Source of the DNA: Nitrosopumilus sp.
GTDB lineage: Archaea; Thermoproteota; Nitrososphaeria; Nitrososphaerales; Nitrosopumilaceae
Length of the DNA: 64,000 bases
Assembly (NCBI GenBank): GCA_965197525.1
Contig: OZ240211.1
Coordinates: forward strand, 576,001 to 640,000
Direction: 5' to 3'
Shown here: positions 7,561 through 60,717 of the stretch, piece after piece
Numbering within the stretch: position 1 is the stretch's first letter
How the letters are laid out: each line of letters begins with the position of its first letter
Made by a program: the position numbers and the translations under genes
Notes under the pieces: model-generated
What the model was told of the DNA's origin: nothing
Database searches by the model: none
Seen by the model: only the letters and a program-made list of their open reading frames with translations

Positions 7561-7856
7561 TACTCACGGTGTTCAATTTGTTTAAAAGCCCGATTTTTTG
7601 TACAAAAGTTGTAATAATTCAGAAATTCTGCAAGTTCTTTGCGGAACTATTTAGCATAACAATTCCTTGTTATCTTTTTTGATCGAATTAGTATTTGAGA
7701 AAATTAGTGTTGTTTTTTAATTCTTAGGTTCTGTTAACTTACCGTCACCTGATTAATCGTGTTAAGTGTCGTCACCTGAGATCTGGTTCGAAAGAGGAGG
7801 ATAAAATATGATGGAAACGCAGATTAACTCTATATCTAGATCATACTTCATAAGAA

Positions 7857-8828
7857 ATGCAAAAAAGAGATTGGATTCTATGGACGATAGTCGCAGGTAT
7901 ATTCATATCTCTGTCATTGCCAATAATATTACCAGACGTAAACGAATTTACAACTGTAGTAATTGCACCTGTAGCAGCTGGAGTCATGATGCTTATTTTT
8001 AAGCAGTATTTTTTTGACGGCATACCATATAGTACGAAAGAAGAACACACGAAAAATATTTGTAAAGTCTACATGTTACTTACACGTGTTGGAATTAAAC
8101 AAGGTAGGCGGAACGATTCACTATGGAAACGTTTTCTAAGGTTTCCAACAGAATATAAACCAGTGGCGGGCCAGATTGTGGAAGAATTATTAGATGGTGT
8201 GCATGTTGAGCAAATATATGAAGATCAACTAGGAGATCATCCTGCTTATCTTCACTATGACTCTGCATTAGAACATCTTAAGAAGCATAGGAAATACAAG
8301 CCTATCTACAAGCATTGGGAAAACACAAAAACCATGTTGGACGAACTCAACAGCAAAACTGGTATTGAGGAAAGGCTTGAAGGCGTAATAAAGGAAAAAA
8401 TGCATCGCTACTTTCCTGCCCTGCAAAGTTTCGCACTAGGAAAAAAATCTTCAGATTTTTACGACATGGATTATATCGTGAAATTTATGATGAAATATTT
8501 CAATAATCTAGACGGCTTTTCAAGACATGCTTTGGACTCTTTGGTTTGTAATAAATCAGGCAGAAACAAATTCGTTTATTCGCAGTGGTATGTTGACAAT
8601 CCTCACATCACCGTGAACTCTGACAGTAAGATAGATTTTAAGACATACAAAAAGTTAGTGAAAGAGATGCAAGAAGATGATTCACTGAATGATTTTTACA
8701 ATGAGTATGAAAATGAACGCTGTAATATCATAAAAGAATTGACTTACTTTCAAGATGAATTAGAAGAACTTGTAAAAGATCTAAAAAGAGGGAAACTGAT
8801 AGAAGGTAAATGCGATGTGGGGTTTTGA
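7857..8828 (+). CDS. Hypothetical cargo protein with N-terminal TM hairpin
   Basis: 323 aa ORF with two hydrophobic N-terminal segments, inside the TIR element. Confidence 0.7.
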   Translation: MQKRDWILWTIVAGIFISLSLPIILPDVNEFTTVVIAPVAAGVMMLIFKQYFFDGIPYSTKEEHTKNICKVYMLLTRVGIKQGRRNDSLWKRFLRFPTEYKPVAGQIVEELLDGVHVEQIYEDQLGDHPAYLHYDSALEHLKKHRKYKPIYKHWENTKTMLDELNSKTGIEERLEGVIKEKMHRYFPALQSFALGKKSSDFYDMDYIVKFMMKYFNNLDGFSRHALDSLVCNKSGRNKFVYSQWYVDNPHITVNSDSKIDFKTYKKLVKEMQEDDSLNDFYNEYENERCNIIKELTYFQDELEELVKDLKRGKLIEGKCDVGF

Positions 8829-8839
8829 TCTCTATCAAC

Positions 8840-9989
8840 TTATTGAGGGATAAGCGAGGCGAAATTTTCCCTATAAAGCGAAGCGTTCTGAATGATAGTT
8901 TTCCATTTATTGTCGCCCTTGATGTCGATTCCTGCTCTAAGAGCTGGCGTATCTCCATCCAAACTCATGTGGGGTCTTATGTAGTTATGATATAATTTGA
9001 TGCCGTCTATTGCAGGAGAATCATCTTTTTTGAGTCCACGAAACACTTTCTCACGGTCTCTGAACTCCCCGTTTAGCCTTTCCTGTATGTTGTTGTTTGC
9101 TACTTGGTTTTTGAAATGTACCTCTTTGATGTGTTTGCTTGGCTTGTGTAAAAAATTCTTTGGTGCAAACTCTTTTTTGAAAGCGTCATTATACGCTGGT
9201 AGACCATCCGTTACAAAAACACTTGGAGTTTTCTTTGTTACATCTTTACCCATCTTTAACAAACTTTGTGCATCATGTTTGAACTTGCTATCAGCTACCT
9301 CTTGAGCAATCCAAAATCTTGTCTCGTTATCCATCATGGCAAACAAATATTTGCGATCTCCTTTGACTTTGAGCCATACCTCATCTGCGTGCCATTTCTC
9401 ACCTACTTGCGGTGTAATAGTGGACAAGTAATTATCCATAAGTTTGGTGTATTTTTTTACCCAGTTGTATATTGAGATATGGCTCATGTTGACACCTTGT
9501 AACTTTAGAAATTTTTGTACTCCTCTAATGGATTCGCCTGTAAAGTACAGTTGCATGGCACTTGTAATAACCTGGGGTGAGGCGTGCATCTTTTCAAATC
9601 CAAGATTGAATGAAAAATATTTTTTGCATTTCATACATTGGTATTTCTGTATAGAGTGGGTCTTGTTCTTTCTGATGCCTTTCTTTTTGATGTCTTCTGA
9701 CTTGCAGAACTGGCAACATGTAACTGTAATCTCATCAACTACTGTAATATTCTGTCTTACCTCTTCTCTAATCTTAAGACTAATTTCAACTGCGTGTATA
9801 TGTTTACAACATACTTTACAGAACTGATGATCTGGACACTGACATGTCCAACCTGCCTCTGTGGATACTATCTCATAGGTATTCTCTGATGACTGTGATT
9901 TTACAAAGTAACGGCTATCATCAACCCTTTCTATCTGGTTTTGTCTCTCTGCTATGATTTGACCTCTAGCCTGTCTTCGATTCGTACAT
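8840..9989 (-). CDS. IS6-family DDE transposase with N-terminal SWIM and Zn-ribbon domains; nearest upstream ATG is out of frame by 1 nt
   Basis: WHADEVW / FVTDGLPAY / NNNIQERLNG DDE motifs; frame stays open upstream of 9634 to 9988 (WTCQCPDHQFCKVCCKHIHAV SWIM; CQFCKS..YQCMKC); ATG at 9989-9987 is +1 relative to this frame. Confidence 0.85.
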
Positions 9990-10063
9990 TATAGGCATAT
10001 TAATGCCTATATAACTTATGCCCTTTAATATAGGCATAAATATAACAGGTCATAATACCTAGT

Positions 10064-10237
10064 ATGAAAAACCTAGTAAAGTATTCAAATGTTGTAATTG
10101 CAAACAAGAACCAGACGGTACGGTGTACGATTCCCAAGGACATTGCAGAGATGCTAGATATAACCACTGACAACAGAATAAAATGGACTTTGGAAATTAA
10201 AACTGGTCAGATAGTATTAGAGCTTGTAAAGGAATAA
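10064..10237 (+). CDS. AbrB/MazE/SpoVT-like small DNA-binding protein (missed by ORF track)
   Basis: MKNLVKYSNVVIANKNQTVRCTIPKDIAEMLDITTDNRIKWTLEIKTGQIVLELVKE: TIPKDIA..L.I....I.W pattern; divergent from the transposase. Confidence 0.7.
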   Translation: MKNLVKYSNVVIANKNQTVRCTIPKDIAEMLDITTDNRIKWTLEIKTGQIVLELVKE

Positions 10238-10247
10238 TCATGATAAG

Positions 10248-10508
10248 TCATGGGATTGATGAGGGCTTGCAGTATTCACAATCACGGGGTGGGTTTTCAT
10301 ACCCATATTTTTCAGCTAAACACTCTGCTATCTTGTAGACCTTTTGAAGGGTTGATGCAGTATGCCAATCTGAATTTTTAGCTGTAGGTTGTTTTCTGCG
10401 TGTATAGTAAGGACACGTTCTTTTATGAATCTTGATATCTCCAACTTTTGGTTTGTTGCGATAAACTGCAAATCCATCTAAATTATGATTCAATATCACT
10501 GAATTCAA
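10248..10508 (-). CDS. Small hypothetical protein with IH...C and C-terminal CxxC
   Basis: KIHKRTCPY ... RDCEYCKP; cargo position. Confidence 0.55.
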   Translation of the reverse strand: MNSVILNHNLDGFAVYRNKPKVGDIKIHKRTCPYYTRRKQPTAKNSDWHTASTLQKVYKIAECLAEKYGYENPPRDCEYCKPSSIP

Positions 10509-10712
10509 TTACGGTTAATATATAATCGTAGTTATTGTAGAAAAAAGGATTTGATCGGTCAAGGGATTTGATCTGTTCAGCATCTACACTGAATTTTTAA
10601 ATAATTGGTACATTTTTTTGATTTATGCTTCCTAATCAAGAAAAAGAACCTGAAACGTAAACGTTTACACTTCCTTTTTCAATAAAATAAATGTTAAATA
10701 CAGTTTCGTTAG

Positions 10713-12140
10713 TGTATTGTCCTGAAAGTAGTTCACCCCTCACATCAGGCTCATAACCTAGGTGGGCGCGTTCCATGACCGATTTTTTCAGCGGCATGGC
10801 ATCCCATGTAAAATCTATGAAAGACACAGCCAACTTGTCCATTACTGGAAACAGTGGTGTGTGGGTCCGCAGATGGAGACGCTCTACTGTGTGGCGTTAT
10901 ATAGGAAGACGGAGAGTACGAGTAATGAAAAAACTTGATCAAGCCAAAGTGGAATGGATTATCAAAGAAAAGCGTAAAGATACTGCAAATAACAAAGAGA
11001 TTGCAGCAAAGATGAACGTCTCTGTCAGATGGGTTCAAAAGCTGCACAAGAGATACAAAGATGCAGACAAGATAGTATATCCTGTCCCAATGGGAAGACC
11101 AAAAAAGAGTGCACCCGGACGACTAGAACACTCTGTGATTCTCTCAGCAATATCAAACGAGATTCGAGGAGCTGCAACCTTGGAGCGCGTCATAAGATCA
11201 TCTGTAGGAATGTATATTGCGCACAACTTTATACACAAAGTATTGAAAGATGCAGATTATGTAGATGCCAGTACAAACAAGGGCAAGAGGCGCAAGTGGG
11301 TTAGGTGGGAACGAGATTACTCCAATTCCCTGTGGCATACTGATTTCAAACATCTTGACGATGGCAGATGGTTCCTGTGTTACCAGGATGACGCTTCACG
11401 TTTTGTGACTGGTTTTGGGGTATTTGCAGAGGCAACCACAGAAAACGCCCTAAAGGTACTTGATGAGGCCATAAAAAATCACGGCAAACCAGCATCAATC
11501 CTGACAGATCGTGGTACCCAGTTCTATGCCACAGAGTCTGAGGTCAAGAAGAAGGGAGTCTCCAAATTTGAACAAAGACTGGTGGAACTTGACATCAAAC
11601 ACATATTGGCACGTGTACGACATCCACAGACAAATGGCAAACTAGAACGCCTGCACGGAGAGATACAGCGCAAACTAGGCCACTTTGAAGGTGCTTCAGC
11701 TGGCAAGACTCGACGTGATACCTCAGAGAACTCTAGCGTGGGAGGACCGTTTTACACCGCATCTGCAAAGGATCCCGTGGAACGGTTCATGGAATGGTAC
11801 AACTACAACAGGCCGCATATGTCACTTGACTGGGACAATCTAGAGACTCCGGTACAGGCATTTAAGAGAAAGATGCCGCCTGCTGGCAAGACGGTGACAG
11901 ATAGTCAAACAGGTCAAAAGTACAGTGTAGAGTAACATTATGACATTAAAACGGATGTTTTATTCTTAGTGGACACTACATAATTTTTTGAATAGTTGTC
12001 ATGCGTGGAGTGGAAATGAATAAAATTCATGAATTGTACAGCAGAATTTAGCGCAAGAGAGTTATACATCACTCTAGAACATCATACATGCAAACATCTC
12101 CAAGTTTTGAAGAGGGGCGAACTACTTTTGGGATCCCACA
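10713..12140 (+). mobile_element. IS481-family insertion sequence
   Basis: TGT...ACA ends; imperfect ~30-bp IR (TGTATTGTCCTGAAAGTAGTTCACCCCTC vs TGTGGGATCCCAAAAGTAGTTCGCCCCTC); flanked by 14-bp direct repeat TACAGTTTCGTTAG at 10699-10712 and 12141-12154. Confidence 0.85.
10925..11935 (+). CDS. IS481-family transposase (HTH + rve integrase core)
   Basis: WHTDFK, QDDASR, ILTDRGTQF, PQTNGKLER motifs; start chosen at MKKLDQ (ORF is open from 10775). Confidence 0.9.
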   Translation: MKKLDQAKVEWIIKEKRKDTANNKEIAAKMNVSVRWVQKLHKRYKDADKIVYPVPMGRPKKSAPGRLEHSVILSAISNEIRGAATLERVIRSSVGMYIAHNFIHKVLKDADYVDASTNKGKRRKWVRWERDYSNSLWHTDFKHLDDGRWFLCYQDDASRFVTGFGVFAEATTENALKVLDEAIKNHGKPASILTDRGTQFYATESEVKKKGVSKFEQRLVELDIKHILARVRHPQTNGKLERLHGEIQRKLGHFEGASAGKTRRDTSENSSVGGPFYTASAKDPVERFMEWYNYNRPHMSLDWDNLETPVQAFKRKMPPAGKTVTDSQTGQKYSVE

Positions 12141-12168
12141 TACAGTTTCGTTAGACTAATGACAAAGT

Positions 12169-12735
12169 ATGTCAGAACCGCCAAAAAACTCAAAGGCTTG
12201 GTATCTCTTACCAGTGTTTCTATTTGCTCTAGGCGGAGTAATTATGTTTTTGGTATTACGTAAAAAGAACTCACAGATGGCGAAACAGGGCCTTATTCTA
12301 GGAGTTACCATATCAGTGGTTTGGTTTTTGGCTCCAATTCTTAGCGGAGCAGCATCACCTCTATGGTTTCTGGAAGATATAGAAGAATATGAATACGAAT
12401 CTAATAATTTTGAAAAGTCTCCAGATAAGCAGAAGCTTGAGATAGATAAGCAGAAGCTTGAGATAGATAAGCAGAAGCTTGAGGCAGAGTTAGCAAAACT
12501 TGAGGTAGTGAAGCAGATGCTTGAGGCAGAGAATTCTGATAGGATAGTGTCTAATGATCAATGTTCATTATTTTGTGATTCAAACAACTATGAACCAGTT
12601 TGGGCCAAGTCTATGGGTAAATATCAAGCTACGAGTAAATGTCAATCTATAGTCATTGAGAACTTTCAATCTAAAGACGGAAAATGGTGTATTGAATTAC
12701 TAGGCAAAATTCTAGATGATCAATATGCACCGTAA
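12169..12735 (+). CDS. Membrane protein with (IDKQKLE)n coiled-coil repeat
   Basis: Two N-terminal TM helices (WYLLPVFL..GG); 21-bp tandem unit at 12424-12483. Confidence 0.7.
   Translation: MSEPPKNSKAWYLLPVFLFALGGVIMFLVLRKKNSQMAKQGLILGVTISVVWFLAPILSGAASPLWFLEDIEEYEYESNNFEKSPDKQKLEIDKQKLEIDKQKLEAELAKLEVVKQMLEAENSDRIVSNDQCSLFCDSNNYEPVWAKSMGKYQATSKCQSIVIENFQSKDGKWCIELLGKILDDQYAP
12424..12483 (+). repeat. 21-bp tandem repeat GATAAGCAGAAGCTTGAGATA, ~2.9 copies
   Basis: Read directly from sequence. Confidence 0.9.
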
Positions 12736-12919
12736 TACGGTATCTATACCTCAAGTTTTGCTAACTCTGTCTCAAGCTTCTGCTTCTCTTGCCATTCTAC
12801 CTCTTTCTTCTCTAGTTGTCTAGGTGACGACAGTTAACAGCAAGAGTCAGGTGACGGTAAGTTAACAGAACCCATCTAACAATATGTTAATATGCTATAG
12901 TATATAACATATCTATATC

Positions 12920-22903: not shown

Positions 22904-23020
22904 GTAATCGAAACTCTCTATATATTTCATATAAACCTTGATTGAGTAGGTTCTGTGAAGTTATCGGGAGTTATATGTCAATTCCTAAAATGTATAAACC
23001 TCTAAACCGTAAGATATTCG

Positions 23021-24223
23021 TTGAAAGCGATAAAGTCAATATCACAGAAATATACGCCAAACTCTGATCTAATGGATATGATGAGTACATTCACAAAGAT
23101 GGTCAATCATTGCATCAAGATAGGGTTGAAAGAAGACACTCACAATATGAAGAGGTTGTCCATGTTATGTTATCATGAATTACGTAATTATGACATCCTG
23201 TCTTCATACAAACTAAATGCAATATCACGAGCTGCAGGCATGTTATCAAACAGAAAACAATCAATCAAACGAGGTGTCAGAATAAGAGATCTAATAGTCA
23301 AAAATCCCTTTATGACAAACTGTTACGGCATAAAACACAACGGTGCACTACTAACAATCCCATACAAGAGACATAACCCAATCAACATTTTACTCAACGA
23401 TCACACCCAAAAAATCCTATCTGATCCCGCCTTGACGGTGCGCTCGTTTTCATTGACTGCTCTGAACATCAGTCTTTGTGTTTCAAAAACAGTGCAAGAG
23501 ATCGAGTGCACCAAGAAAGTGGGAATAGACAGAAACCTAAGAAATGTGACGTGTGGGAATGAGAAAATGGTAACATTCTACAAGACAAACAAGTTACTGT
23601 CAATCAAAGAGAACACAATACATGCAAGAGCAGGATTCCACAGAAATGATCGCAGAAAGAAAGGTCAATTCTGGAAACAAAGACAGAGACGAATGAGCAA
23701 TAGAACAAAGCAGTACATCCACAGAATCTCAAAACATATTATTGACAATGCAGTCAAAAACAAGACTGCAATCGTCATGGAAAACCTGAAAGGAATAAGA
23801 AAACTGTACCGAAAAGGAAACAGTCAAGGTAACAAGTACAGACGTAGATTGAACGGGTGGCAATTCTACGAGTTACAACGCCAAATAGAATACAAAGCCC
23901 AATGGGTCGGGCTACCTCCAGTCGAATTTGTAGATCCAAAACGCACGAGCACGCAGTGTCCGCAATGCGGAAAGAAACTCCAAGAGGACATGCAACAACA
24001 TCGTAAAATGTCGTGCAATAATTGCGGTTTGTTTATGGACAGAGATATTATCGCTGCCATGAACATATCACGCAAACTGCCTCCTAGGTTTAGGGGTAGT
24101 AGAGATGACATATATGAAGCGCAGTCTGGCACTTTTGAGCCGGCGATGACGGAACCTAGCACACCATTGGTAATCCGAATAGTCGATATGTCAAAGTCAA
24201 GTTTAGGGGTTAACTCCCGATAA
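23021..24223 (+). CDS. tnpB: TnpB RNA-guided endonuclease (intact)
   Basis: VGIDRNL (RuvC-I), IVMENL (RuvC-II), TSTQCPQCG..CNNCG..DRDIIAAMNI (Zn finger, RuvC-III); TTG start; stop codon lies within the right TIR. Confidence 0.95.
   Translation: MKAIKSISQKYTPNSDLMDMMSTFTKMVNHCIKIGLKEDTHNMKRLSMLCYHELRNYDILSSYKLNAISRAAGMLSNRKQSIKRGVRIRDLIVKNPFMTNCYGIKHNGALLTIPYKRHNPINILLNDHTQKILSDPALTVRSFSLTALNISLCVSKTVQEIECTKKVGIDRNLRNVTCGNEKMVTFYKTNKLLSIKENTIHARAGFHRNDRRKKGQFWKQRQRRMSNRTKQYIHRISKHIIDNAVKNKTAIVMENLKGIRKLYRKGNSQGNKYRRRLNGWQFYELQRQIEYKAQWVGLPPVEFVDPKRTSTQCPQCGKKLQEDMQQHRKMSCNNCGLFMDRDIIAAMNISRKLPPRFRGSRDDIYEAQSGTFEPAMTEPSTPLVIRIVDMSKSSLGVNSR
24060..24222 (+). ncRNA. Putative TnpB omegaRNA (scaffold plus guide) overlapping the tnpB 3' end
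   Basis: Hairpins CTGCCTCCTAGGTTTAGGGGTAG and CTGGCACTTTTGAGCCGG covary with copies 2/3; boundaries approximate. Confidence 0.6.
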
Positions 24224-24236
24224 CTTCACAGAACCC

Positions 24237-38179: not shown

Positions 38180-38202
38180 GGTTCTGTTAACTTTCGAGGG
38201 GT
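38180..38202 (+). repeat. Orphan IS6-type terminal repeat
   Basis: GGTTCTGTTAACTT is identical to the first 14 nt of the 7727 TIR; no complete partner found. Confidence 0.6.
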
Positions 38203-40697: not shown

Positions 40698-42028
40698 GGT
40701 TCTGTTGGGTTAACGGGTGTTGACTGCTGAGGATCATGTCAGATTCCACAACCATCAACAACACATTGACTACTCGACTTTGACATATCGACTATTCGGA
40801 TTACCGGTCTGCAGGGTTCCGCCATCGCCGGTTCAAAAACACCGGACTGCGCTTCATGTATGCCATCTCTACTATCTCTAAACCTAGGAGACAGTTTGCG
40901 TGATATGTTCATGGCAGCGATAATATCCCTGTCCATAAACAAACCGCAATTATTACACGATGATTTACGATGTTGTTGCATGTCCTCTTGGAGTCTCTTT
41001 CCGCATTGCGGACACTGCGTGCTCGTGTTTTTTGGGTCTACTGTTTTTACAGGTAGCCCGACCCATTGGGCTTTGTATTCTATTTGTCTTTGTAGTTCAA
41101 AGAATTGCCATCCGTTCAATCTACGTCTGTATTTGTTGCCTTGACCGTTTCCTTTTCCGTACAGTTTTCTAATTCCCTTTAGATTTTCTAGAACAATGAC
41201 AGCCTTTTTCTTGACTGCATTGTCTACTATGTTTTTTGAGATTCTATGTATGTACTGTTTTGTCCTGTTTGACATTCTTCTCTGTTTTTCTTTGTAGAAT
41301 TGACCTTTCTTTCTTTTGTTGTTTCTACGGAAACTGGATCTGGCATGTATTGTGTTCTCTTTGATTGAGAGTAACTTGTTGGTTTTGTAGAATGTTACCT
41401 CTTCTTCATTTCCGCATGTGACGTTTCTAAGGTTTCTGTCTACTCCCACTGTCTTGGTGCACTCTATCTCCTGTACTTTTTTTGAAATACAAAGACTGAT
41501 GTTGAGAGCAGTCAATGAAAACGAGCGCACTGTCACGGTGGGATCAGACAGTATTTTTTGAGTATGTTCGTTGAGCAGGATGTTAATTGGATTTCTTGGC
41601 TTGTATGGAATTGTGAGTAAGGCGCCGTTGTGTTTTATACGGTAACAATTAGTGATAAACGGATTTTTGATAATTGGATCTTTTACTTTGAGGCCACGTT
41701 TGACTGACTGATCTCTGTTTGCCAGGATGCCCGCAGCTCGTGATATTGCATTGAGTTTGTATGAAGATAGGATGTCATAGTGACGTAATTCGTGATAGCA
41801 TAGCATAGACAACCGTTTCATGTTGTGGGTATCTTCCTTTAGCCCATCTTGATACAACGGTTAACCATGTCTGTGAACGTGATCATCATATCCATTAGGT
41901 CAGAGTTTGGTGTATGTTTTTGTGCTATTGACTTTATTGCTCTCAACAAGTATTGTACGGTTTAAGGTTATCTATATTTAGTGTTATGGGTATAATTTCT
42001 GATCAACACCCGTTAACCCAACAGAACC
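40698..42028 (-). mobile_element. Non-autonomous IS6-type TIR element carrying tnpB (copy 2, 1331 bp)
   Basis: Perfect 26-bp TIR GGTTCTGTTGGGTTAACGGGTGTTGA at 40698-40723 and 42003-42028; near-identical to copy 3; no TSD. Confidence 0.9.
40739..41949 (-). pseudogene. tnpB: tnpB with a 1-bp deletion near the 5' end
   Basis: TTTAGCCC-ATCTTG here vs TTTAGCCCTATCTTG in copy 3 (deletion at ~41845); explains 1331 vs 1332 bp; RuvC motifs intact. Confidence 0.88.
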
Positions 42029-58885: not shown

Positions 58886-59340
58886 AATCTGTATTCGTTG
58901 ACCATGTTTAAAACAGTTTAATATAAAACGATGTTTTGGGAATAATGATTAATTTATAACATTGATTCAAAATACATCAATCATCAAAATTCATGCCGTT
59001 TAGAACATGATAATTAGTTAAGAGAAAGAATAACCGCAGATAGTGTATTTTTTGTAATAGTATAACATATCACGGCGATGTAAGATTTTGGGTTTTAGAT
59101 AGGATCTCAGATGATCAGAAAGAGAGATGTCTGCTAACAAAAATAACTGGTTGGATGTTCTTCCATAGTTTGCCATAATTTACAAGTGCCAAAATGACGC
59201 AACAGATACAAAATAGATGTAATTCAAATCTACAAGATGCAAGTATTTCAATCACACAATTCCGGTAGATTACCACGTGAGGAGATGATCAGGGTACTGA
59301 GAAGCAACGAGCGATAAACAACACAATATCGTAGATTAAG

Positions 59341-60672
59341 GGTTCTGTTGGGCTAACGGGTGTTGACTGCGGAGGATCATGTCAGATTCCACAACCATCA
59401 ACAACACATTGACTACTCGACTTTGACATATCGACTATTCGGATTACCGGTCTGCAGGGTTCCGCCATCGCCGGTTCAAAAACACCGGACTGCGCTTCAT
59501 GTATGCCATCTCTACTATCTCTAAACCTAGGAGACAGTTTGCGTGATATGTTCATGGCAGCGATGATATCCCTGTCCATAAACAAACCGCAATTATTACA
59601 CGATGATTTACGATGTTGTTGCATGTCCTCTTGGAGTCTCTTTCCGCATTGCGGACACTGCGTGCTCGTGTTTTTTGGGTCTACTGTTTTTACAGGTAGC
59701 CCGACCCATTGGGCTTTGTATTCTATTTGTCTTTGTAGTTCAAAGAATTGCCATCCGTTCAATCTACGTCTGTATTTGTTGCCTTGACCGTTTCCTTTTC
59801 CGTACAGTTTTCTAATTCCCTTTAGATTTTCTAGAACAATGACAGCCTTTTTCTTGACTGCATTGTCTACTATGTTTTTTGAGATTCTGTGTATGTACTG
59901 TTTTGTTCTGTTTGACATTCTTCTCTGTTTTTCTTTGTAGAATTGACCTTTCTTTCTTTTGTCGTTTCTACGGAAACCAGATCTGGCATGTATTGTGTTC
60001 TCTTTGATTGAGAGTAACTTGTTGGTTTTGTAGAATGTTACCTCTTCTTCATTTCCGCATGTGACGTTTCTAAGGTTTCTGTCTACTCCTACTGTCTTGG
60101 CGCACTCTATCTCCTGTACTTTTTTTGAAATACAAAGACTGATGTTGAGAGCAGTCAATGAAAACGAGCGCACTGCCAAGGCGGGATCCGACAGTATTTT
60201 TTGAGTATGTTCGTTGAGTAGGATGTTAATTGGATTTCTTGGCTTGTATGGAATTGTGAGTAAGGCGCCGTTGTGTTTTATACGGTAACAATTAGTGATA
60301 AACGGATTTTTGATAATTGGATCTTTTACTTTGAGGCCACGTTTGACTGACTGATCTCTGTTTGCCAGGATGCCAGCAGCTCGTGATATTGCATTGAGTT
60401 TGTATGAAGATAGGATGTCGTAGTGACGTAATTCGTGATAGCATAACATAGACAACCGTTTCATGTTGTGGGTATCTTCCTTTAGCCCTATCTTGATACA
60501 ACGGTTAACCATGTCTGTGAACGTGATCATCATGTCCATTAGGTCAGAGTTTGGTGTATGTTTTTGTGCTATTGACTTTATTGCTCTCAACAAGTATTGT
60601 ACGGTTTAAGGTTATCTATATTTAGTGTTATGGGTATAATTTCTGATCAACACCCGTTAACCCAACAGAACC
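59341..60672 (-). mobile_element. Non-autonomous IS6-type TIR element carrying tnpB (copy 3, 1332 bp)
   Basis: 26-bp TIR at 59341-59366 (one mismatch) and 60647-60672; 8-bp TSD. Confidence 0.93.
59382..60593 (-). CDS. tnpB: TnpB RNA-guided endonuclease (intact)
   Basis: VGVDRNL, IVLENL, CPQCG..CNNCG, DRDIIAAMNI; TTG start. Confidence 0.95.
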   Translation of the reverse strand: MLRAIKSIAQKHTPNSDLMDMMITFTDMVNRCIKIGLKEDTHNMKRLSMLCYHELRHYDILSSYKLNAISRAAGILANRDQSVKRGLKVKDPIIKNPFITNCYRIKHNGALLTIPYKPRNPINILLNEHTQKILSDPALAVRSFSLTALNISLCISKKVQEIECAKTVGVDRNLRNVTCGNEEEVTFYKTNKLLSIKENTIHARSGFRRNDKRKKGQFYKEKQRRMSNRTKQYIHRISKNIVDNAVKKKAVIVLENLKGIRKLYGKGNGQGNKYRRRLNGWQFFELQRQIEYKAQWVGLPVKTVDPKNTSTQCPQCGKRLQEDMQQHRKSSCNNCGLFMDRDIIAAMNISRKLSPRFRDSRDGIHEAQSGVFEPAMAEPCRPVIRIVDMSKSSSQCVVDGCGI

Positions 60673-60717
60673 AGATTAAGTATCTTTTAATATCCAAATT
60701 CAGCCTCTAGTATTATT

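Follow-up and report, generated by a model that had tools for sequence, protein, structure and literature searches.

We analysed a 64,000-nucleotide window of the Nitrosopumilus sp. contig OZ240211.1 (assembly GCA_965197525.1, positions 576,001 to 640,000) and find at positions 59341–60672 a 1332-bp element that holds one gene, an intact tnpB. This element is probably a non-autonomous transposon that has the ends of an archaeal IS6-like DDE element, carries a complete TnpB-omegaRNA module as its payload, and whose copies would be retained where they lie beside a target-adjacent motif (TAM). The reading draws on a TAM-like trinucleotide at one side of nearly all duplication-bearing insertions of the family, on the chance-level frequency of this motif beside elements that carry the transposase, and on a predicted guide-RNA scaffold that would extend to the last base of the element. 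An earlier note on this DNA had proposed that a TnpB nuclease was captured as cargo by an IS6-type element, and several of its claims bear on the results below.

The element is bounded by two inverted repeat arms of 26 nt (59341–59366 and 60647–60672), which match at 25/26 positions (96% complementary) and have GGTTCTGT tips. The arm at the tnpB 3′ end, GGTTCTGTTGGGCTAACGGGTGTTGA, reads on the plus strand, and the arm at the tnpB 5′ end, recognised by repeat comparison, on the minus strand. Adjoining both arms is a perfect 8-bp target-site duplication, AGATTAAG (8/8), the downstream copy in the sense of tnpB lying at 59333–59340 and the upstream copy at 60673–60680. A search of the window for the 26-mer, tolerating up to three mismatches, gives four occurrences, where 0.00 are expected (none in 100 shuffles). 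The sole long open reading frame between the arms runs on the minus strand over 59382–60593 (403 aa, TTG start). Only 79 bp, the 26-nt end included, precede its start codon and 40 bp follow its stop codon, and there is therefore no room for tnpA or a second gene, just as the earlier note had described. The short upstream region (60594–60646, minus strand) has A/T-rich, TATA-like stretches and is presumed to act as promoter of tnpB and the omegaRNA. A GG start with a cTGTt motif, which together with an 8-bp duplication is a feature of the IS6 family (PMC7986276), is present at both ends here (GGTTCTGTT) and also in about 90 related elements, which bears out the assignment of the ends to the IS6 type. 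In place of the subterminal hairpins and fixed target of the IS200/IS605 family (IS1341 group) we find 26-nt inverted ends and variable 8-bp duplications. No Rfam family matches the element; the neighbouring tRNA-Gly alone is matched.

The 403-aa product is identified as TnpB by its profile matches (NF040570, 129.7 bits with a cut-off of 100; PF07282, 76.8 bits with a cut-off of 26.3, 1.4e-21), and among solved structures its nearest relatives are Cas12f proteins, further members of the TnpB family and ISDra2 TnpB. The RuvC residues D171, E255 and D342 and the zinc-finger cysteines C313, C316 and C332 (CxxC...CxxC) are invariant in a 9-sequence alignment, with catalytic triad and zinc finger both intact. 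The frame is kept open in 31/33 full-length tnpB copies of this genome, and the ratio of nonsynonymous to synonymous substitution rates among the genomic copies is 0.13–0.24 (first 340 codons); tnpB is under purifying selection. The protein is predicted to be an RNA-guided, TAM-dependent nuclease, for which the one-sided motif described below gives indirect support.

The host genome is closed (one contig, 2.21 Mb, 99% complete), and a protein search found 50 tnpB loci in it, all of one family. The 1332-bp element is present in six copies at 97–100% identity, and about 25 further full-length tnpB elements lie at 82–86% identity. A count of the copies, proposed in the earlier note as a check, placed paired ends with GGTTCTGT tips, of several subtypes, around 43/50 loci; 27 of these elements have a duplication of at least 7/8 (25 of them 8/8), each at its own site. 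There are thus dozens of sister tnpB copies at different sites, many with their own duplication. The two ends of the tnpB elements consistently differ beyond about nt 24. The duplication has been lost in 16–17 of 43–44 copies, which is compatible with replicative cointegrate transposition. We also considered simple pairwise recombination, with exchange of flanks, as the source of the duplication-less copies; with a single approximate 8-mer match among the 17 copies, it does not account for them.

Ten miniature inverted-repeat transposable elements (MITEs; 208–497 bp) with the same ends are present in the genome. They consist of the 5′ end and the last 100–395 bp of a full element: the omegaRNA part is kept in 10/10, the 5′ part of tnpB in none. 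To judge from this composition, the MITEs are internal-deletion derivatives of tnpB elements. Genome-wide searches with PF01797 (Y1 transposase) and PF00239 (serine recombinase) gave no match, while control genomes do match, in keeping with the earlier claim that neither kind of TnpA accompanies this tnpB.

A DDE partner of the kind foreseen in that note is encoded in the same genome. There are eight matches to the IS240/IS6 DDE domain (PF13610), and elements carrying the transposase have the same end tips and 8-bp duplications. A 1970-bp transposase element (genome positions 746475–748444) has ends that match at 29/30 positions, a 378-aa transposase at 746963–748099 and a duplication, CTATTGTG, and the first 18 bases of its ends are identical to those of one tnpB subfamily. 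The intact transposases (378–383 aa) match the IS6 profile NF033587 over its full length with 103–121 bits (cut-off 125), and homologous transposases in two related genomes score above that cut-off, with 127–148 bits. Those encoded here carry an extra N-terminal SWIM finger and a zinc ribbon, and instead of the compact IS6 form (about 0.8 kb; transposase about 230 aa) we find 1.97 kb and 378 aa. The partner is thus best called ‘IS6-like’, since tip and 8-bp duplication fit the family and size and added domains do not. IS6-like transposases occur in 83/201 genomes sampled from the order. A 3.19-kb IS6-like transposon (699962–703151, locus L033) combines the transposase with a DNA methyltransferase (DPPF motif) and an HNH-type protein, and the same ends therefore move several kinds of cargo in this genome. 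Two further elements with these ends, of 835 and 851 bp (572469–573303 and 883991–884841), have small open reading frames only, with no function assigned. No transposase was found within 3 kb of tnpB in about 85 loci, and therefore tnpB always travels without a transposase of its own; nor did we find elements with transposase and tnpB inside one pair of ends.

We oriented every element in the sense of tnpB and rebuilt its target site. Directly 5′ of the upstream duplication, W-T-R is present in 27/27 duplication-bearing elements of this genome: the T at −2 and a purine (A or G) at −1 are invariant (27/27 each), and −3 holds T in 20 elements and A in 7. At the element in the window the trinucleotide is ATA on the tnpB strand (60681–60683, minus strand). 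Given a genome-wide N-T-R frequency of 0.146, the binomial probability of 27/27 is 2.6e-23. The mirrored position on the other side has N-T-R in 5/27, and these 27 elements show no signal in the duplication itself or in the downstream flank. In other genomes, including those of the G+C-richer Bathyarchaeia and Atabeyarchaeia, N-T-R is upstream in 27/29 elements and is TTR in 20. Altogether 54/56 insertions with a duplication have the motif, at 0-bp spacing from the duplication. Copies without a duplication still have it upstream in 12–13/17 cases, and MITEs with these ends likewise lie beside it. Twelve transposase-carrying elements of the order, which have the same tips and 8/8 duplications, have N-T-R on 5/24 sides, the level of chance (Fisher's test, tnpB elements versus transposase-only elements, 6.5e-12). 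The motif therefore accompanies the tnpB/omegaRNA payload rather than the ends as such. We read N-T-R (mostly TTR) as the putative TAM, which would imply RNA-guided homing or retention of a DDE element.

A conserved core is seen in the aligned last 190 nt of 32 diverse elements. The structure obtained with RNAalifold was extended by one hairpin stem, and base pairs were then counted and compared with 500 shuffles. Over four helices 92.3% of cells are paired, versus 73% in shuffled alignments and 29–46% when the partners are slid, and double-sided changes number 134 cells versus 45.6 (0/500 shuffles reach 134). Helix 3 is a long-range stem with double-sided changes at 6/7 pairs. A hairpin that varies in length is closed by helix 4, with nt 7–12 of the inverted end as the 3′ arm and a 5′ arm that comes after the conserved core; this helix has double-sided changes at 5/6 pairs as well as G-U pairs, varying in step with the end subtype. 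Cognate arms of helix 4 form duplexes of −11.9 kcal/mol on average, versus −7.0 for non-cognate arms. In helix 2 the loop of the first hairpin, GGUU(U/C), pairs with the terminal (A/G)GAACC in 32/32 sequences, and the outer 5 nt of the inverted end would thereby serve as the 3′ strand of a pseudoknot. Comparative analysis of this kind points to a conserved structured RNA that shares sequence with the 3′ end of tnpB and extends as far as the element's final base; at the element in the window the predicted omegaRNA scaffold (about 180–200 nt) covers 59341–59540 on the minus strand.

The solved structure of the ISDra2 complex has a pseudoknot in which nt −6 to −2, immediately ahead of the guide, pair with a stretch further upstream (PMC10097598). 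With the tip of the end in the role that the strand before the guide has in ISDra2, the scaffold would end with the element and the guide would start at the first flanking base, inside the duplication, and continue into the flank. Scaffold geometry and the TAM-like motif together place the predicted guide template at 59317–59340 (minus strand), that is, the duplication and the next ~16 nt of flank, transcribed by read-out from the element. The tip needed for recognition by the transposase would then double as the pseudoknot strand of the guide RNA, so that nuclease and ends would be functionally fused. In two sponge metatranscriptome runs, contigs cover 59415–60034 only (tnpB towards its 3′ end, and the omegaRNA region), leaving the single-copy flanks and the 5′ half of tnpB uncovered. 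This is a weak hint of abundant 3′ RNA from the element, contig cover carrying no start, end or strand information. The same cover places the organism in a sponge, and the genome probably belongs to a sponge symbiont, which may be related to its heavy load of insertion sequences.

In the mechanism that we propose, an IS6-like transposase would move the tnpB element in trans, and transcription would read out past the 3′ end to give a guide composed of the 8-bp duplication and about 8–12 nt of flank. A vacant site, made up of TTR, a single copy of the 8 bp and the flank, would then present a TAM with a full guide match and could be cut by TnpB. The filled site would be protected, its guide match being preceded by ...ACC and its upstream copy of the duplication matching for only 8 nt before the end begins. 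Cuts at vacant or precisely excised sites would be repaired from a filled copy; copies beside a TAM would be kept and multiplied, and others would be lost or keep moving. Retention on the TAM side would explain why surviving copies and MITEs lie nearly all beside TTR, and would account for the motif at 54/56 insertions; this placement of the copies suggests that TnpB helps them to persist. The tnpB elements of the genome are 0.5–5% diverged from their nearest copy and none is brand new, which leaves time for a retention filter to act. Cutting of vacant sites followed by repair is the logic proposed for IS605 elements (PMC10690162). Applied to this family, it suggests that the archaeal transposases excise, or that vacant alleles are often met.

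Several points weigh against such a mechanism. Bacterial IS6/IS26 elements transpose replicatively without excision, which would leave restorative homing little to do, and a retention filter must be very efficient to yield 54/56. No empty-site allele was found among 80 genomes of the genus, which are about 75% identical in the region; homology with congeners breaks off 408 bp short of the left duplication and resumes 6 bp past the right one. Three DNA runs that contain the locus show contigs breaking in the repeat and no joint across the element. As for the RNA, helix 2 is nearly invariant, its covariation consisting of one compensatory change and 15 U-G/C-G switches, a single-sequence fold of the last 220 nt is no better than its shuffles (z = −0.43), and the transcript support is contig cover. 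The transposases of this genome score slightly below the NCBIfam IS6 cut-off, and the membership of archaeal and long zinc-finger forms in the IS6 family is disputed (PMC6807381).

The TAM-linked retention of copies has two serious rivals. The one-sided TTR could reflect a target preference of the transposase that moves the tnpB element, exerted through slightly asymmetric ends, with TnpB a mere passenger. The consistent difference between the two ends beyond about nt 24 would fit, and IS605 offers a precedent in which the target of TnpA coincides with the TAM of TnpB (PMC13565253). We nevertheless think this unlikely, given that the twelve transposase elements with the same tips and 8/8 duplications have NTR at chance level, that IS_B and a tnpB subfamily are identical over the first 18 bases of their ends and yet the motif is found beside the subfamily and not beside IS_B, and that the motif stands exactly at the TAM position relative to the read-out guide and is T-rich like the motifs of TnpB and Cas12. 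Still less likely in our judgement is that TAM-bound TnpB or its omegaRNA steers the DDE transposase, which would then integrate beside the TAM at 0-bp spacing and in a fixed orientation. The guide changes with each insertion and so cannot specify new sites, no fusion or adjacency of transposase and TnpB was seen, and IS_B, which shares the cell with about 30 tnpB genes, is not beside the motif (n=1). The near-total association (54/56), the exact spacing of motif and duplication and the presence of the motif at omegaRNA-only MITEs would all be accounted for by such steering; however, with all copies at least 0.5% diverged, a slower retention filter suffices. If steering did occur, it would amount to a nuclease-active, guide-independent, RNA-protein-assisted choice of target in archaea, and could represent an intermediate on the way to CRISPR-associated transposons.

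The guide could also be an internal, fixed one, encoded in the variable segment that separates the conserved scaffold from the end. The subfamilies do diverge immediately past the conserved ...AAGU, leaving a stretch of variable length, about 20 to 110 nt, before the element end. This stretch, however, pairs with the inner part of the end, as helix 4, with compensatory changes and G-U pairs, and in the 1288-bp subfamily it consists of that hairpin alone. The strand equivalent to the pre-guide pseudoknot of ISDra2 is the last 5 nt of the element, and a TAM-like motif in the flank would be left unexplained. The covariation of helix 4 and the energies of its cognate duplexes contradict an internal guide, which we regard as very improbable. 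It is hardly credible at all that a static IS6-type MITE once took up an IS605-type tnpB element, with the ends and tnpB not mobile together, even though short elements (208–497 bp) with the same ends exist. Each MITE holds the last 100–395 bp of a tnpB element, and these MITEs are deletion derivatives and not empty hosts; at least 27 tnpB units here and 23 in other genomes have their own 8-bp duplications. Nested insertion is contradicted by this derivation of the MITEs from tnpB elements and by the absence of a Y1 TnpA from the genome, and there is no space for IS605 ends. Insertion of tnpB into a static MITE, hairpin ends of the IS605 type at other copies, and a cognate tnpA behind their spread had been named in the earlier note as the three outcomes that would tell against its proposal, and none of them was borne out: the MITEs derive from tnpB elements, the other copies are without such hairpins, many have perfect duplications, and the genome has no tnpA.

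The association of this TnpB clade with its ends extends well beyond the genome. Within the genus the clade is patchy (8/61 sampled genomes). Relatives in other genomes, at 63–65% and 33–39% identity, share the GGTTCTGT ends together with 8-bp duplications. In species-representative genomes we found 80 tnpB loci, from Nitrosopumilus, Nitrosotalea, Nitrosotenuis, other Nitrososphaeria, Bathyarchaeia, Methanomethylicota and Atabeyarchaeia (Asgard), 68 of them with enough flank for analysis of the ends. Such ends are present at 47/68 loci (Nitrososphaeria, Bathyarchaeia, Atabeyarchaeia; TnpB identity 37–85%), with an 8/8 duplication in 23 of the 47 and at least 7/8 in 29, and they surround TnpBs of 37–54% identity in several archaeal phyla. 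The same ends at less than 40% TnpB identity therefore speak for a long-lived pairing of the clade and its ends; judged by these sequence comparisons the pairing is old and not a recent capture. The picture of tnpB as captured cargo thus holds as far as a non-autonomous gene in IS6-type ends is concerned. A recent, passive capture does not stand, in view of the relatives at 37–54% identity, the apparent fusion of ends and scaffold, and the motif at 54/56 insertions.

Among the relatives (loci L069–L148), the tip upstream of tnpB departs from GGTTCTGT in about 27/47, for example as GGCTCTGT or TGTTCTGT, and the downstream tip in only about 8–11/47. The steadier downstream tip fits a double constraint, as transposase site and as RNA pseudoknot strand, and many of the relatives' copies may be immobile and yet have retained the RNA. 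Two copies in the Nitrosopumilus metagenome-assembled genome OZ245003.1 (L072 and L073) have reciprocal flanks, TAGAAACT/TTATGTTA and TTATGTTA/TAGAAACT, the pattern left by an inversion when two oppositely oriented copies recombine.

The general idea of DDE-linked and solo prokaryotic TnpBs is already known. Altae-Tran et al. (2023) linked six TnpB branches (DDE-1 to DDE-6), all with inverted ends, to DDE transposases, and reported solo TnpBs in matching ends, for which mobilisation in trans was inferred (PMC10691335). As in those branches, the ends here are inverted, the 3′ end of tnpB is at most 250 bp from the element end and the ends match those of a transposase. Unlike them, tnpB here is never beside a transposase, and according to a 2026 review their partners are ISL2, IS630 and IS1031, not IS6 (PMC13565253). 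We found no paper that names an IS6-type partner, and the geometry of TAM, duplication and guide, with the tip as a pseudoknot strand, is not described in the main text of PMC10691335. A full-text literature search gave nothing on IS6 with TnpB, on TnpB of Nitrosopumilus or Nitrososphaeria, or on a TAM combined with a duplication and inverted ends. Apparently new are the IS6-like nature of the partner, a tnpB that is obligately solo, an end tip fused with the pseudoknot, and a TAM outside the duplication with the duplication in the guide.

ISDra2 and the solo tnpB elements of the IS1341 type resemble the present family in the TnpB family itself, in an omegaRNA over the tnpB 3′ end and in a pseudoknot 5′ of a guide taken from the flank (PMC10097598), and homing of IS605 (PMC10690162) likewise has a vacant site made of TAM and guide match. 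Unlike IS200/IS605, there is here no Y1 TnpA, no subterminal hairpin and no fixed target (TTGAT, TTAC), and the 26-nt inverted ends come with an 8-bp duplication, predicted to supply the guide's first 8 nt. Fanzors in eukaryotic DDE transposons are similar in that a TnpB-family nuclease rides in inverted-end, target-duplicating elements moved by an unrelated DDE transposase (PMC3627910, PMC13565253); in their case the TAM is read as including the 5′ duplication, and the RNA scaffold contains the 3′ one (PMC13565253). Here, unlike in Fanzors, the duplication is variable and would lie in the guide, the TAM would be outside it, and the host is an archaeon. Type V-K CRISPR-associated transposons use a nuclease-dead Cas12k, which directs insertion via TniQ/TnsC to a site about 60 bp away from the protospacer-adjacent motif. 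These too link a TnpB-derived protein to a DDE-type transposon; in contrast, the nuclease triad is intact here, adaptor genes are lacking and the motif abuts the duplication. With IS6/IS26 the family shares the GG..CTGTt tip, the 8-bp duplication, which is often lost, and matches to PF13610 and, in this genome at scores slightly below the cut-off, to NF033587, and it differs in the 378–383-aa transposase with SWIM finger and zinc ribbon and in an autonomous element of 1.97 kb versus about 0.8 kb. One passenger gene has been recorded in the IS6 family (ISDsp3), and no TnpB (PMC7986276).

The window contains further members of the family. A second copy of the 1332-bp subfamily, recognised by sequence comparison, lies at 40698–42028 (minus strand) in the same orientation and is 98% identical. 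Its flanks are unmatched (TTAACAGG/GGCGACTG), without a duplication, TTG stands at the TAM position, and a 1-bp deletion shortens the tnpB frame at its 5′ end, to residues 34–403. A third tnpB element, assigned to the 1287-bp subfamily by comparison of its ends (GGTTCTGTGAAGTTATCGGGAGTTA), lies at 22949–24235 (plus strand), also without a duplication and with TTG at the TAM position. An element of 5.1 kb at 7727–12872 has 26/26 identical ends with the GGTTCTGT tip (GGTTCTGTTAACTTACCGTCACCTGA) and no duplication. A domain search found in it an IS6-like SWIM-DDE frame of 382 codons (8840–9985, minus strand), which is open and has no start codon at the conserved N-terminus; about 2.9 kb of the element are other cargo. 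Solo GGTTCTGT end-like sequences lie at 38180 and 48835, with no partner within 4 kb. Around the 1332-bp element, TTTAATAT occurs at 58917–58924 and 60686–60693, flanking a 1.76-kb stretch (58925–60685) that is missing between conserved neighbours in other species of the genus and consists of the tnpB element and 416 bp unique in the genome. This pair may mark an older 8-bp-duplicating insertion, or be due to chance.

Help of an RNA-guided nuclease to transposons is established only for those of the IS605 and IS607 types, which excise without a scar, and whether the same trick serves the commoner, target-duplicating DDE transposons is an open point (discussed in PMC13565253). The family described here gives a testable answer: the guide would start in the duplication, the TAM would stand just outside it, and the tip bound by the transposase would be the pseudoknot strand. 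For a clean experimental test the family offers dozens of insertions made in nature, MITEs reduced to the RNA module, and matched controls with the transposase only. As a compact archaeal TnpB with a short (N)TR motif, the protein would also join the list of candidate editors, and for the sponge-associated ammonia oxidiser itself, the tnpB family accounts for a large part of the load of insertion sequences.

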